Position numbers and translations under genes: made by a program
Assembly (NCBI GenBank): GCA_951406725.2
Contig: OX597814.1
Span: 217,930,001 to 217,994,000, forward strand
Length of the DNA: 64,000 nucleotides
Reading direction: 5' to 3'
DNA from: Octopus vulgaris
Taxonomy: Eukaryota
In this document: piece after piece, positions 24,834 to 60,671 of the stretch
Layout: each line of letters starts with the position of its first letter
How positions within the stretch are numbered: position 1 is the first letter of the stretch
The notes under the pieces: generated by a model
What the model was told of the DNA's origin: nothing
Databases searched by the model: none
What the model saw: only the letters and a program-made list of their open reading frames with translations

Positions 24834-25103
24834 TCTTACATATAATAAAACGCAATGTGTGTCCGGTTGGTCATGCTGGTAGGAGAAAACTAAAACAACA
24901 AACGGAGGGGCGGGGTGAGAATAGGAAATGCTAAATACAAGTGAACTGCAGTAAAAGGTTTTTACTTTGCTGTAAGTAGGTGGTATTTTAATCAAAATAA
25001 AACTGCAAATTTTTATAAATTATATGTATGAACTTCACACGCACAAACATATAAATGAAATGGAATGATAACACTCTCTGCATAATATTACCAATCACGT
25101 AAC

Positions 25104-25145
<42 letters not shown>

Positions 25146-25151
<6 letters not shown>

Positions 25152-25616
25152 AATATAAGAGAGTGGTCACTATATGGCTCACTCTAGCACCAGTTAATCC
25201 AAAAGGTTTCAACCACGAAAATACATGTTTCCCATGAAAGTCAGTACGATTGTTAGCTCACACGGACAGGGCAAATAAAAAATAACAAAAATAACGTCGG
25301 ATGTAATCAATTGAACCACACGCGTATTTATCGTTATGGTAAAATCTGGCGTGTGATTGAGTGGATTTCATCCAGATAGTTTTGGCTGACGAGCTACAAG
25401 TGGATTTTTTTGTAAGTAAAATTACATTTAATTCATTAATAGCGAAACAATTGTCCCAAAATAATCTGTATTTTTGTTATTTTTTATTTGCCCTGTCCGT
25501 GTGAGCTAACAATCGTACTGACTTTCATGGGAAACATGTATTTTTGTGGTTGAAACCTTTTGGATTAACTGGTGCTAGAGTGAGCCATATAGTGACCACT
25601 CTCTTATATTTATTTT
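25146..25616. repeat. 148-bp inverted repeat (25146-25293 / 25469-25616) with a 175-bp loop, between (TA)n tracts
   Basis: Arms are reverse complements with one visible mismatch. Confidence 0.95.
25373..25468 (+). ncRNA. Intact type I hammerhead ribozyme motif
   Basis: Helix I CAGATAGTTTTGG/CCAAAATAATCTG; core CTGACGA (25386-92); helix II GCTA...TAGC; GAAA (25444-47); palindromic helix III ACAATTGT; GUC triplet with predicted cleavage after C25455. Confidence 0.88.
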
Positions 25617-25737
25617 GTAAAAATATTATAATATATTATAAAATATTATAATAATCCAGGTTTCTCGGAGCACTAGGCCACTTGGTGTTGAATAGATATA
25701 CTATTAAATTAGTATCTAATTCTCTCACCCTTATTAA

Positions 25738-25777
<40 letters not shown>

Positions 25778-26037
25778 GAAATATGTTACGAAAAGAAAAT
25801 ATAAAATACACGTGGAAATGTAAGGGTAAAATATGAAAAATCAACGAAAATGCACATTGCAAATAAAAAAAACCTATTTATGACAGGTAACGACAAATAT
25901 ATACATTTAGATTGACTGAGGTAGTAATACGAGTCATAAAAGTCATTATTATGAGATGATTATAAGATGATAATAAAGTAAGAGAACAAAACGAACCATG
26001 GTTTACGCAAAACTATTCATCGTTTGAACAACACCGG

Positions 26038-26080
<43 letters not shown>

Positions 26081-26116
26081 GAAAGAATGGAGTCGAACGA
26101 AGATTTTTAACAAAAT

Positions 26117-26213
26117 TCCTTTACTCTCGACACATGTTTCGAAGATGGCATACTTTTAATTCCGAAGGAATAAAGGGTGCATTATGCCATCTTCTCATTA
26201 GGAAAGATAAGGA
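26117..26213 (-). ncRNA. Type I hammerhead motif with G5A core mutation
   Basis: Minus strand reads TCCTT AT CTTTC CTAATGA GAAGATGGCATA-loop-TATGCCATCTTC GAAA CATGT GTC GAGAG TA AAGGA. It has a perfect 12-bp helix II, a GUC site and a two-part helix I. Confidence 0.75.
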
Positions 26214-26686
26214 GCCTCTTTCAGCCACAAGACGAACAAAAGTTTTTGATGACTGCCTACATGGTGACCATTATCACTGTCAAGAAACTCAAATATTCTG
26301 AAGCTAAGTTATTAATAAAGTCTCAAGTGTTCACAGTCTAACAATAAGTATAAAATTTATAGAAAGAAAAGGCACTGAAAAGAATTTAATGTATAAAGAA
26401 TAGAACAACTGAGAAGAAAAACAAAGGAGAATATTTGAGACGACAAGAAGAGGATGAATAGTTTGAATTTCCATTCTTTGTTTTTTGCACTACAGCAAGT
26501 GCATATAGATAAGGTATATATAAACATGGTTTAAGGATAGTCCTCTTGAAATATAATGCCTAGATGACTAATAAAGTTGATTTGGTGGAAAATAAAAGAA
26601 CACGTAAAAATCTGCAACACCTTTATAGAAAACTTCTAGGAAAAAACAAAGACAAGACAGAAAAAAAAATGTAGGAAACACACATA

Positions 26687-27100
26687 GGTGCAGGAGTGGC
26701 TGTGTGGTAAGTAGCTTGCTAACCAACCACATGGTTCCGGGTTCAGTCCCACTGCATGGCATCTTGGGCAAGTGTCTTCTGCTATAGCCCCGGGCCGACC
26801 AATGCCTTGTGAGTGGATTTGGTAGACGGAAACTGAAAGAAGCCTGTCGTATATATGTATATATATATGCATGTATGTGTGTTTGTGTGTGTGTGTCTGT
26901 GTTTGTCCCCCTTAGCATTGCTTGACAACCGATGCTGGTGTGTTTATATCCCCGTTACTTAGCGGTTTGGCAAAAGAGACTGATAGAATAAGTACTGGGC
27001 TTACAAGAGAATAAGTCCCGGGGTCGAGTTGCTCGATTAAAGGTGGTGCTCCAGCATGGCCGCAGTCAAATGACTGAAACAAGTAAAAGAGTTAAGAGTA
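26687..27100 (+). mobile_element. SINE family A, full length
   Basis: Close match to 13409 and 35156. Confidence 0.92.
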
Positions 27101-27456: not shown

Positions 27457-27551
27457 TAAATATCAAAGATGAGGATAACATGCAATAATACAAAACAACA
27501 CAATGAATATAGTAGTAGTAATAAAATCACGACAATAAGAGGACTTTGTTG

Positions 27552-27682
27552 GTGGTAGTGTGGTAAAAAGCTTGCTTTCCAACCACACGGTTCCGAGTTC
27601 AGTCCCACTGCATGGTACCTTGGGCAAGTGTCTTCTTTAGCCTCAGGCTGACCAAAGCCTTGTAAATGGATTTGGTAGACGG

Positions 27683-27748
<66 letters not shown>

Positions 27749-27982
27749 AAATAAATATATATGTATGTATATGTTTGTGTCTGTGTTTGTCCCCCCACCC
27801 ACCATCCCTCGACAACTGATGTTGGTGTATTTATCGTCCCATAACTTAGCAATTCAGCAAAAGAAACTGATAGAATAAATACTAGGCTTACAAAGAATAA
27901 GTCCTGCAGTTGATTTGTTCTACTAAAGGTGGTGCTCCGGCATGGCTGCAGTTAAATGACCGAAACAAAATAAAAGAATAAA
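27552..27982 (+). mobile_element. SINE family A with expanded internal (CT)n(AT)n
   Basis: Family A head and tail. Confidence 0.88.
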
Positions 27983-30166: not shown

Positions 30167-30578
30167 CAGGAGTGGCTGTGTGGTAAGTAGCTTGCTAACC
30201 AACCACATGGTTCCGGGTTCAGTCCCACTGCATGGCATCTTGGGCAAGTGTCTTCTGCTATAGCCCCGGGCCGCCAATGCCTTGTGAGTGGATTTGGTAG
30301 ACGGAAACTGAAAGAAGCCCGTCGTATATATATATATATATATATGCGTGTGTGTATATGTTTGTGTGTCTGTGTTTGTCCCCCTTAGCATTGCTTGACA
30401 ACCGATGCTGGTGTGTTTACGTCCCCGTCACTTAGCGGTTCGGCAAAAGAGACCTATAGAATAAGTACTGGGCTTACAAAGAATAAGTCCCGGGGTCGAT
30501 TTGCTTGACTAAAAGGCGGTGCTCCAGCATGGCCGCAGTCAAATGACTGAAACAAGTAAAAGAGTAGAGTAAAGAGTA
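30167..30578 (+). mobile_element. SINE family A
   Basis: Close match to the other copies. Confidence 0.92.
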
Positions 30579-37639: not shown

Positions 37640-39405
37640 AATGTCAGCTCCAGCTCGTATCTGAGCATTGGATGTGTCAGTTTCTATCCAGTCTCCTCAG
37701 CAGATGTTTATGCAGAATGTGACTTTGGAGTCCAAATCGGTGGTGAAAGAGTCGTGGGAAGAATTCACACAAGATGGTCGGTGCAGGTTGAGGATGTTGA
37801 AGAGGAGACAAGAAGGCCCCATTCGCTGGACGTGACCTGCCCAGCAGAGACGATGGCGAAGAATGGTGGCTTCAACACTTGGTAAGGAGGTGCAGCAAAG
37901 AGCCGCCGTGTTGTTGGTAATGTGATTTTCCCATTGAATATTGAGGATCTGTCATAACTGAGATTGCTGGAAGCATTCCAGGTGCTTAAAATCATGGTGG
38001 TACAGCGTCCAAGTCTCACAAGCAGAGAGAAGAGTTGGGAGGACAATGGTACGGAAGACCATGATCTTTGTCTGGAGGTTCAGCACATGATTAAAGAATA
38101 GACATTGGCTGAGTCTACTGAGGGCAGAGTGGGCCGCCCTGATCTGGTTCTCCATGTCCTTTTCACATGTGGGGGTTTTCAAACGAATACTTCCAAGGTA
38201 TGAGAAGTGTTCAACTTCTAGGGGTTGGCCAGTGATGCTAATGTTTGTGCATGAGTGGACTGTTCTAGCCTGGTGCAGGTGGGATCAGGGTCTTGGCCTT
38301 TAATATGTTTACCTGCAACCCAAAACATTCATAAGCCACATTTTAAAGATCAGCTGTCCTTTGTAGGCCATCTACAGTCTGGCTTGGGGGGTCATCGTCA
38401 CAGGCACACTGCATCTCACAGACTGAGATGGTGGAGATCTTTGTCTTTGCGCAGAGACATGGGAGATTGAAGAGTCTGTCATCCAAGCGATAATGCATGT
38501 TCATGGAAGGTGAGTCCAGTGGGATTTCATTGAACATGGCAGCCATGTACAAAGAGAAACAGGTTGGTGCCAGGACACATCCTTGCTTAAGACCCCTAGT
38601 GATAGGAAATGGGTTTGTAAAGGAATTTTGATGGTATAACCTACCCATGATGCCATTATGAAGGGAACGGACCAGGGCAATGAAGTCCTCCAAACATCCA
38701 AACCGAGTAAGGACAGCCCACACTGCAGGATGGGAGACCATGTCAAAGGCTTGCTTTAGGTCCCAGAACATGAACAATGCAGGTGGTTGTTGTTGTTCTT
38801 GACACTTCTCCTGAAGTTGGCAGGCACAAAAAATCATATCAGTTGTGCCTCAAGAGGGTCGAAAGCCACACAGGGATTCAGGGAGGACGTCTTCCGCAAG
38901 GATGAGGAGGCAACTGAGTAGGATACAGGCAATGATGATCTTGCTTGCAATACTCAAGAGTGAGATGCCCCGATAGTTGTTGCAATCCCCTCAGTCTTCC
39001 TTCTTGTAGATGGGGATGATAGTTGCATTGCAGAAATTATTCGGGAGGATCTTGCTTTCCCAGATCTTGAGGATAAGGAGCATCAGATGACTTCTCAGCT
39101 CAGGACCTCCATGCATGAAAAACTCAAATGGGATGTTGGCTAGTCCTGGAGATTTTCCTGGCTTTGTGCACTCAAATGCCTTGCTGAACTCGTGGGGCAA
39201 AGGCAGCAGAGACAGCTGTGGGGTGTTTTGGAGGAGGTCGTCAGAAGTGCATGAGTAGTCATTAAGTAGGCTCTCGAAATGAGACTTCCAGTGATTGAGA
39301 ATTCCTTGGGTGTCAGTTATTGTAAAGCCAGCTGCTTTCTTCAGGCTACCCACTGATGACCTTATGGGGGCCGAAGATCTCCTTGGTTGTGACGGAAAAG
39401 TGGCA
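37640..39405 (-). mobile_element. RTE/BovB-like LINE reverse transcriptase, decayed and 5'-truncated
   Basis: KPGKSPG..NIP.E, IIPIYKK, QLQEKCQEQ, DLKQAFDMV, GLKQGCVLAPTCFSLY, VLPTLLSACETWTLY across several frameshifted ORFs. Confidence 0.93.
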
Positions 39406-40180
39406 CAATATATACAGACACATACACACACATACAAGTAGATGTACATGCATACATATACATATATACACATGGATCACCCTGATTACTGCTTTCTATG
39501 AATCATTGCAATCACAGAGATGTCTTAATTAATATCACTATTTCTACAACCAACACTACTATTTGTATTTATTCAGTAAACAGAAGAAAATTGAACATTG
39601 TGTGAGAAAACTTTTGAGCCATGTTGTAAATTTATTTTAAAAGTGAAAGGTTAAAAATTTCAACAAAATTTTTATGAGCGAACAGTGAAGTAACCCACAA
39701 TGAATATAACTGAAAAACTCGGTGTAGATAATATGCATACGAACAGTGCAGTAGAGGCATTCCAAAGATAACAGGTTAACATGAAAGATGAGAATAACAT
39801 TTAGAAATGACCTTAGCAGTACTAAAATTTTAATTATATCTCCTTTGACTATAACATCCTTTTCTTCCTATTATTATTTTATGCTTGCTTTGATCTTATT
39901 CTTTTTCAGAATCAGCACCAAAAAAGGCCGCTGTCAGCTACAAAGGTGGTGGTCGCCTCAAGTGAAAATATGAGTGAAAATTTTGAAACATTTTGGAAAA
40001 TACTAAATTAGTTCATTTAAGGTCATTTTCTTGCCATTTAGTTTCAGAAGATGATTTAGTATTTCTAGTGACTGAGATACAATTATTAAAGGAAGTATAA
40101 CATGAATTACAACTAGAAATCAGAATCAGTTTTAGAATCTAATACTTTACTAAACTGATTCCTGCAAAATGTCTAATGAA

Positions 40181-58920: not shown

Positions 58921-59779
58921 TATTTAGACAGGGGAGTAAAAATTAAATCTTGCCATTTACCATAATCTCTAAGTCAACTCCAACATGTATGTCATGGTTG
59001 CAGCTAGAGTCCTAATTAAACAGCAAATATTGATTTTTAAAAAAATATTATAAGTAGTATCAATACTATGGTACTCTTCATTCATTTTTTGCAGTCATCT
59101 CACTGAAATGGCTTCAACTTTTACCCAACACCAATTAGCAAAGATAGTAACAGATATAGCAAAAAAGAAACAACAAATCATGCCCCACCCCTACCATATG
59201 GTAAGCACAATCAATCACCTTTAGTAACACTCCAAAGATCTCCAATAATGACAAGGAAAATACTTTATAACGACTCTAGTTATGCCCCAGATAAATTCTC
59301 TTGATACCTCTTACAATTACTTAAAATCCTTTTGAGACAGACACAAAAACCAGTACCTGCAATCTAGAAATATTTCAATGTCAAAGTTTGGTTAGCTTTA
59401 ACAAAGTGAACTTAATAAGTGTTGGGGAGCTTAGTTAGGCTGAATAACTGATACGGGATATCGAAATATAAAGGTTAATTTGGTATCATATAGTTACCAG
59501 TTTTTATGAGACTTCTAAAATGATTTGTAAGAAGAGCTGGGTACAAATGAATTGAGGTCTAAAAGGTTCTAGTGATCAATACCTATAAAGGTAGAAGAAT
59601 ACGGGAAGGCTGCAGCAAATAAATAAAGTGTAAAAGAATTCTTGTGCAAACCTTTTGTTCTTAGAATCAAGACTATCTGAAACCTGTTTACTAAGATGTA
59701 ATACTAGATTAGTATGGAAAAGGTTTTAAATATATCTTTAAAGTTGCACATAAAGTTGTGCATACTCGACAGAGCATTA

Positions 59780-60671
59780 GTGCATACTCGACAGAGTGTT
59801 AGTACCCTGAGAGAAATGTTGGACCTAAGAAGCATCAGTTGTGGTGTGCAAGAAAGACGATTGCGCTGGTATGGTCATGTGGCGAGAATGGATGAAGATA
59901 GGTGTGTGAAAAAGTGCCAATCCCTAGCAGTGGAGGGAACCCGTGGAAGAGGTAGACCCAGGAAAACCTGGGACGAGGTGGTGAAGCATGACCTTCGAAC
60001 TTTAGGTCTTACTGAGGAAATGACCAGCGACCGAGACCCTTGGAAATATGCTGTGCGTGAGAAGACCAGGCAGGACAAGTGAGTCCAGCCCACTTATGCA
60101 TGCCTTTCCTCCCTTGGACACACAAAGACCTGTTGAGGCAAGCGAAGTCGATATCGAACCTCATCCGATGACAGGCACCTATGCCAACCCCCCCTTTGCT
60201 TGCGAAGACCTGTTGGGGCAAGTGAAATCGGAATCGAAATTGAACCAATCCTATGACTGGCACCCGGCAGATGCCAGGACCCCTGGACTGGAGATACGTA
60301 AAAAGCACTATCCGAATCGTGGCCGATGCCAGTGCCGCCTCGACTGGCTTCCGTGTCGGTGGCACGTAAAAAGCACCATCCAAATCGTGGCCAAAGCCAG
60401 TGCCGACTCGACTGGCTTCCGTGCAGGTGGCACGTAAAATGCACCAATCCGACCGTGGCCGATGCCAGCCTCGCCTGGCACCAGTGCAGGTGGCATGTAA
60501 AAAGCACCCATTACACTCACGGAGTGGTTGGTGTTAGGAAGGGCATCCAGCTGTAGAAACATTGCCAGATAAGACTGGAGCCTGGTGCAGCCTTCTGGCT
60601 TCCCAGATCCCCTGTCGAACTGTCCAACCCATGCTAGCATGGAGAACGGACGTTAAACGATGATGATGATG
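59780..60671 (+). mobile_element. RTE LINE 3' end, young, 5'-truncated
   Basis: Open C-terminus RRLRWYGHVARMDEDR...GRGRPRKTWDEVV...EKTRQDK* (stop at 60082), then the 3' UTR repeat array and (GAT)n tail. Confidence 0.93.

Follow-up and report, generated by a model that had tools for sequence, protein, structure and literature searches.

The window analyzed here, a stretch of 64,000 nucleotides from Octopus vulgaris, contains a type I hammerhead ribozyme motif within a short fold-back insertion that is flanked by (TA)n tracts. The insertion (locus L016) is one copy of a repeat family with a unit of 535 nt, in which position 1 is defined as the base after the predicted cut. The features, in window coordinates, are as follows.

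25108 to 25145, no strand: left (TA)n target tract, from the sequence
25146 to 25293, minus strand: inverted arm, unit positions 161 to 14, with its 3' end at the short fixed end (161)
25291 to 25746, plus strand: forward arm, unit positions 371-535 followed by 1-291, with its 3' end at the long fixed end (291)
25373 to 25468, plus strand: type I hammerhead motif, helix I formed by 25373-25385 with 25456-25468
25386 to 25392, plus strand: catalytic core CUGA-C-GA (CTGACGA in DNA letters)
25393 to 25443, plus strand: long, multi-segment helix II of 51 nt, from the fold and from segments that covary across 12 relatives
25444 to 25455, plus strand: GAAA box, palindromic helix III (25447-25454) and predicted cut after C25455, from the sequence
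25617 to 25746, plus strand: 130-nt tail that separates the two fixed 3' ends, in the forward arm only
25743 to 25774, no strand: right (TA)n target tract, from the sequence

The two arms, 148 nt from site 161 and 456 nt from site 291, overlap by 3 nt at their junction. The first-pass annotation had placed the motif inside a fold-back element, and the arms of approximately 150 nt are indeed 98.7% complementary; the fold-back is the 5' inversion of a Penelope-like element (PLE) insertion and not a part of the ribozyme. All traits of a PLE-type insertion (an inverted 5'-truncated arm, a one-sided tail and a (TA)n target) are present in the window copy, and an inverted copy with a tail that is often found at one end only is described for PLEs in the text of PMC8557442. 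Compared with a copy on another chromosome, the window copy shows one difference in the 456 bases of the forward arm and one in the 148 bases of the inverted arm, and its core is intact because the copy is young. It carries one ribozyme and lacks unit positions 292-370 (79 nt), so that no full unit can be released from it, and it does not contain the two consecutive units with complete ribozymes by which Li et al. (2026) define an active locus. For the formation of circles, this ordinary insertion is a dead end.

At 26079-26215 on the minus strand lies the decayed hammerhead of a different long-helix-II family that is also abundant (core at 26201, G5 changed); it ends in a (TA)n tract at about 26041-26078. 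The window further contains several copies of what we take to be a SINE-like dispersed repeat (26690-27080, 27547-27970, and 30167-30560; repeat families D11 and D13-D15), and two broken frames (38343-39476 and 59708-60082) that resemble LINE reverse-transcriptase fragments.

The motif displays the CUGANGA core, the GAAA box and the NUH cleavage site of a type I hammerhead, and its complete CUGACGA, GAAA and GUC (GTC at 25453-25455) were found exactly where the first-pass annotation had placed them. Its description of the helices holds as well: helix I consists of 13 positions with a single mismatch (A-A) and one G-U pair, helix II is long and multi-segment, and helix III is the palindrome ACAATTGT at 25447-25454. 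The proximal strands of helix II are GCTA (at 25393) and TAGC (at 25440), with an internal loop after 4 bp. Three helices surround the core with helix I open, an arrangement that is backed by covariation, and we infer a tertiary docking of helix I with loop II. An Rfam hammerhead search, which had been proposed as a check, returned no match at the gathering score in the window and no hammerhead at E ≤ 10 within 25000-25800, probably because of the long helix II; a match to Rfam is a database proxy and not a defining feature of the hammerhead class. A splice-donor-like GTRAGT at the tip of helix II (25412-25417) is kept in related families; its use as a splice donor was rejected on the weak evidence that no such joint occurs in four runs.

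The 96-mer of the window has a folding energy of −27.3 kcal/mol (z = −5.0), which none of 200 shuffles equaled. The minimum-energy fold is predicted to be inactive, with the core GAC paired to the cut-site GUC, and the constrained active single hammerhead lies 5.6 kcal/mol above this minimum, both alone and within the whole insertion. For two neighboring units, a double-hammerhead fold gains 8.7 kcal/mol over a pair of single hammerheads and still lies 3.8 kcal/mol above the minimum.

Homologous copies with neither a conserved core nor covarying helices had been named at the outset as evidence against the ribozyme; the helices do covary. Among 12 aligned copies from related families, the 25 named pairs show 87.2% pairing, against no more than 49.3% in slid controls; double changes occur at 15 of the 25 pairs and none of 500 shuffles reaches the paired fraction. 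The long helix II segments covary in these 12 relatives too. Across 27 clusters, 152 of 216 positions are paired in helix I versus 108 ± 6, and 89 of 108 in the proximal helix II versus 50 ± 5; at helix I positions 7 and 8, pairing falls to 10 and 8 of the 27 clusters. These alignments indicate that the fold is selected across the relatives.

The architecture extends well beyond a single family. A pattern with the same helix III and a spacer of 45-62 nt matches 5,802 times in the genome (control: 3), and a pattern with a free loop 3 and a spacer of 36-66 nt matches 40,072 times (control: 1,681). By hand count, the loop-3 tetramer is self-complementary in 88 of the first 100 matches listed, consisting of 64 strict palindromes (11 different ones) and 24 tetramers with G-U pairs, while 11 are mismatched and one is incomplete. 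The innermost bases of loop 3 cannot pair in a hairpin and the complementarity therefore points to pairing between ribozymes, which would mean cleavage as a dimer. The dimer model of hammerhead cleavage, as presented in PMC4209133, fits both the loop-3 sequences and the predicted double fold, and these also agree with the axolotl data of PMC7229834.

From 1,047 candidates returned by a DNA search of the 2.8 Gb genome, 40 were scored, and nearly all of these 40 were ~100% identical over 325 nt. The first-pass annotation had called for a genome search for copy number, and an exact pattern of the 20-nt core yields 218 copies (0 for the reversed control). A total of 85 loci were mapped and 84 were kept after one near-duplicate was dropped; a few of them are incomplete at the sequence edge. 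In these copies, units of 533-535 nt follow one another head to tail and contain one ribozyme each. Thirty-three of the 84 loci carry at least two intact ribozymes on a single strand, with a maximum of 13, and are active loci as defined by Li et al. (2026); 49 loci carry one and two carry none. Non-LTR retrozymes are defined by the absence of coding capacity and a GC content below 45%; the unit has a GC content of 32% and a longest stop-free frame of 87 amino acids. The circular unit is highly self-paired (68% paired, fold z = −11.3 based on 40 shuffles). Core variation is low (5/2,180 versus 1,670/95,779 elsewhere), a value that is biased because the loci were picked by core-containing queries. 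Sister non-coding families that are ~75% identical share the architecture, with ends at approximately +161 and +271 (L075 399-680, L131 2745-4285, L115, L122, L124, L125, L128, and L168).

The analysis of the 84 family loci revealed the insertion signature of PLEs. A TA tract adjoins 126 of 130 resolved 3' ends, and the 3' ends concentrate at unit positions 161 (50 ends) and 291 (54 ends), 130 nt apart, and their close neighbors. Fifty head-to-head junctions were identified, of which two at a locus edge and two in a near-duplicate pair with an arm that breaks off early were left out. All 46 remaining insertions have one arm near 161 (156-164) and the other near 291 (278-291), where an independent choice of ends would give about half; seven of the 46 were scored from the outermost of several indel-split segments. 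The same rule applies to coding PLEs, with 10 of 11 fold-backs of an 811-amino-acid Neptune-like family and all three clearly resolved Hydra-type fold-backs plus L120 (L120, L206, L208, and L209). Furthermore, minor alleles agree between the arms of one locus in 107 of 117 cases, compared with 750 of 10,306 (7%) between loci.

One arm per site together with shared alleles suggests that priming is paired and uses a single, probably circular, RNA. Alleles would also be shared between the arms if two RNAs came from the same source locus, and we infer paired priming in which each DNA end uses its own site, on a single RNA or on several from a common source. Run-off of the reverse transcriptase at a cleaved 5' end is not supported: none of the 98 5' junctions is located exactly at the cut site and seven lie within positions 531-14 (p = 0.06). 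For a Poseidon PLE of the anole, the text of PMC11167929 (Frangieh et al. 2024) describes two internal start sites of reverse transcription that bound the tail; both DNA strands are cut and extended there, and the protein is predicted to form a dimer. The two bounding start sites are common to the anole element and the octopus family, whereas the tail is 30-40 nt in the anole element and 130 nt in the octopus, and the octopus rule of one site per arm in two-armed insertions is not stated for the anole element in that text. A literature search, with supplements and most subscription papers outside its range, likewise returned no statement of the arm rule.

The first-pass annotation had also proposed linkage to an ORF encoding a reverse transcriptase and a GIY-YIG endonuclease as a check, and the element is not attached to such an ORF. 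Young intact PLEs are present in the genome: Neptune-like elements of 781 and 811 amino acids, assigned to this clade from the cysteine linker and the DKG motif, and Hydra-type elements of ~980-1,090, 717, and 727 amino acids. The 980-amino-acid Hydra-type element shows RWK, DKT, and CxCX5C, which are diagnostic of the Hydra clade in the text of PMC8557442 (Craig et al. 2021), and long-helix-II ribozymes are present in the pLTRs of its relatives. The coding Hydra-clade members in the octopus genome share with the 535-nt family the long-helix-II ribozyme, the ACAATTGT-type helix III and the (TA)n insertion, and differ from it by their ORF, by ends at +35-37 and +104-155 (versus +161 and +291) and by the absence of significant end homology. 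In all four Hydra-type families, 3' ends occur 35-37 nt after the cut, compared with 161 nt in the 535-nt family, and the tails are 130 nt long in the 535-nt family, 110 nt in a sister family, 67-120 nt in the Hydra types and ~40 nt in the Neptune-like elements. One Hydra-type pLTR aligns with the 535-nt family at 82% over 44 nt (E = 1e-4); this alignment includes the conserved core and the remainder alone is not significant. A Hydra-type origin of the ribozyme is plausible from these similarities.

The 3'-end sequences gave no match to five coding PLE families beyond that of shuffles (best p = 0.018 in 45 tests), and no partner that might mobilize the family was found among the two Neptune-like families and three Hydra-type groups compared. 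Several candidates were rejected: the resemblance of the long end of the 535-nt family to an older copy of the 811-amino-acid element (p = 0.23), a motif downstream of helix I compared with Hydra-type copies (p = 0.16-0.58), and a link between the related family in L131 and a PLE ORF, which is a neighbor in a shared TA tract.

The coding elements themselves contain further hammerhead-like sequences. The 811-amino-acid Neptune-like element carries a minimal hammerhead with a U3-A8 core variant in its pLTR (L168, reverse strand, 3681 and 7676) and is organized in tandem 4-kb units in which an upstream ORF of ~495 amino acids overlaps the reverse transcriptase ORF. The 781-amino-acid Neptune-like element, recently active as judged by its many near-identical intact copies, has a 503-nt pLTR with a possible U3-A8 hammerhead and a weak helix I (L064, 1244-1747 and 5957-6460). 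The 717-amino-acid Hydra-type element, with a tandem unit of 2,590 bp, belongs to a very young family and contains a hammerhead-like sequence with C instead of U at core position 4 (L304, 1236-1300). The intact 980-amino-acid Hydra-type ORF (L206, 3326-6265) has a long Asn-rich insert between the reverse transcriptase and the endonuclease and gave no Pfam match at E ≤ 0.1. One PLE protein of the genome matches a named Octopus sinensis protein at 68% over 41% of the query, in keeping with an octopus source.

Contigs of four presumed-RNA runs cover 17-30 of 30 bins of a natural dimer, a type of data that cannot show ends or circles. On the ribozyme strand, A>G changes outnumber T>C in two presumed-RNA runs (15 versus 2, and 7 versus 2). 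The A>G changes cluster in unit positions 5-134 (reads placed on L013 1661-2730), and at positions 85, 99, 100, and 134 no genomic locus that covers them has a G. This hints at sense transcription and A-to-I editing, possibly by ADAR, but does not amount to evidence: the runs carry an organism code other than that of the best DNA match and have no matched DNA. The A>G share of locus-specific variants is higher among those found in all units (7/18) than among those found in a single unit (5/104, p = 0.0002). Inheritance of editing by new copies was not established: A>G does not exceed T>C per base (p = 0.24).

Retrozymes have already been described in print and a PLE origin has been proposed for them; circles and dimer cleavage, including data from the axolotl, are covered in the text of PMC7229834 (Cervera and de la Pena 2020). 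Metazoan non-LTR retrozymes of coral, mussel, and axolotl, as portrayed there and in bioRxiv 10.64898/2026.07.22.740005 (Li, Clavereau and Pollet 2026; a sample of vertebrates, insects, and a coral), resemble the octopus family in having ORF-less units in tandem, each with one type I hammerhead, as well as low GC content, high self-pairing and co-existing PLEs. The axolotl HHR_Amex2 of PMC7229834 also shares the 2-bp helix III with a tetraloop. The octopus unit of 535 nt compares with 150-450 bp in PMC7229834 and 51-972 bp in the bioRxiv study. The octopus family differs by a helix II of ~50 nt instead of ~4 bp and by a ribozyme that is predicted to be blocked by self-pairing in the circle. 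Unlike in the retrozymes of these accounts, the PLE geometry of an inversion and two fixed ends is seen directly on the non-coding octopus family, and PLE mobilization is therefore supported by mechanism and not by co-occurrence. Known dimer-type hammerheads share the palindromic positions 15.2-16.2 and loop 3, the dimer-type design, many consensus families per genome and an enlarged helix II; however, their helix II is 6-8 bp and their helix I is short, compared with ~20 bp in three segments and 13 positions in the octopus motif, which in contrast to them resides in a non-coding tandem repeat. The text of PMC7229834 contains no mention of octopus or cephalopod, and that of a 2026 octopus repeat annotation (PMC13282606) has no word starting with "ribozyme" or "satellite". 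In a literature search to which supplements and Repbase-type descriptions were external, neither a cephalopod retrozyme nor a helix II this long came up, nor any account of the 535-nt family.

The first-pass annotation had suggested a non-autonomous PLE or retrozyme family, and the tandem ORF-less units, the PLE-type inversions and tails, the covariation and the palindromic loop 3 support a young, non-autonomous, ORF-less tandem non-LTR retrozyme of PLE type. The motif in the window is the hammerhead of this non-coding family, whose RNA is likely to self-cleave as a dimer of two ribozymes, to form circles and to be copied by a PLE reverse transcriptase-endonuclease into (TA)n. At loci with at least two units, read-through transcripts would pair the palindromes of neighboring helices III and release monomers, which would ligate into circles where the lone ribozyme would adopt the inactive fold. 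A PLE protein would then break a TA tract and prime both DNA ends on the RNA, with site 161 serving one end and site 291 the other. The two cDNAs would run around the circle for variable lengths before their far ends are joined head to head, and the window copy, with an arm of 148 nt from 161 and one of 456 nt from 291, would be such a product. The predicted folds count against this explanation, with the inactive form as the minimum and the double form still above it, as do the absence of 5' junctions exactly at the cut site among the 98 scored, the negative comparison of 3' ends with five coding PLE families and the cleavage of only one of nine predicted Xenopus retrozyme dimers reported in the text of bioRxiv 10.64898/2026.07.22.740005. 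The same holds for the ribozyme of the anole PLE, which according to the text of PMC11167929 depended on protein and could be dispensed with when the element inserted in vitro.

It is unlikely that the template is instead an uncleaved linear multimer of a PLE-mobilized non-coding element, with a weak, protein-gated or passenger ribozyme and no circles. Such a template would account for cDNAs that routinely cross the cut site without any ending exactly there and for the inactive predicted minimum, and the anole PLE inserts from unprocessed RNA (text of PMC11167929). However, arrays of 5-13 units occur even though no more than one ribozyme per strand is present at 51 of the 84 loci, and since arrays of up to 13 units cross every cut site, a circular template is the best explanation. 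The distribution of locus-specific variants also speaks against a linear multimer: at sites covered by at least two units, 18 of these variants are present in every unit of their locus and five in only some (104 are present in one unit). A passenger ribozyme is hard to reconcile with helices and loop-3 palindromes that covary in many families, a pattern that argues for selection on the fold.

Far less probable is that the copies are 5'-truncated pLTRs of an undiscovered autonomous PLE. The long-helix-II ribozymes and related helix III of the coding Hydra-clade elements, including the one with 82% identity over 44 nt, agree with this reading, and 5' truncation is usual among PLE copies. However, the units are arranged head to tail without a coding spacer. 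A search of the 84 loci with five PLE proteins identified no ORF for a reverse transcriptase and GIY-YIG endonuclease inside an element, as expected of an autonomous PLE; the proteins match near six loci and always outside the element span. Furthermore, the first 100 of 2,010 tail matches listed continue into the unit or into TA, except for one chance match and a few diverged ones. A satellite-like repeat amplified at the DNA level, or a fold-back transposon of the MITE kind, in either case carrying a fossil ribozyme, which would fit the tandem arrays, the inverted arms and near-identical copies that look intact without selection, is hardly credible and largely refuted by sequence comparison: the arms are unequal, the junctions vary while the asymmetric 3' ends are fixed, the copies lie scattered over many chromosomes in TA tracts, and PLEs that encode a reverse transcriptase show the same geometry.

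A broader form of the paired-priming model, in which a dimeric PLE protein, two fixed sites, one RNA circle and two cDNAs are obligate for every two-armed PLE-type insertion, is tentative; it is possible, with the balance tilted somewhat against it. If true, it would explain tandem arrays, 5' inversion and one-sided tail together, and the strict rule of one short and one long arm provides a sharp prediction for PLE reverse transcription. The octopus genome, with ~38,000 Rfam-invisible long-helix-II hammerheads of the dimer type, would be a direct test bed that includes a still-spreading 535-nt circle which may be A-to-I edited. The long-helix-II architecture reveals a large hammerhead class that standard models miss, and the 535-nt family is a useful model that bears on how retrozymes move and on what the hammerhead does for PLEs.
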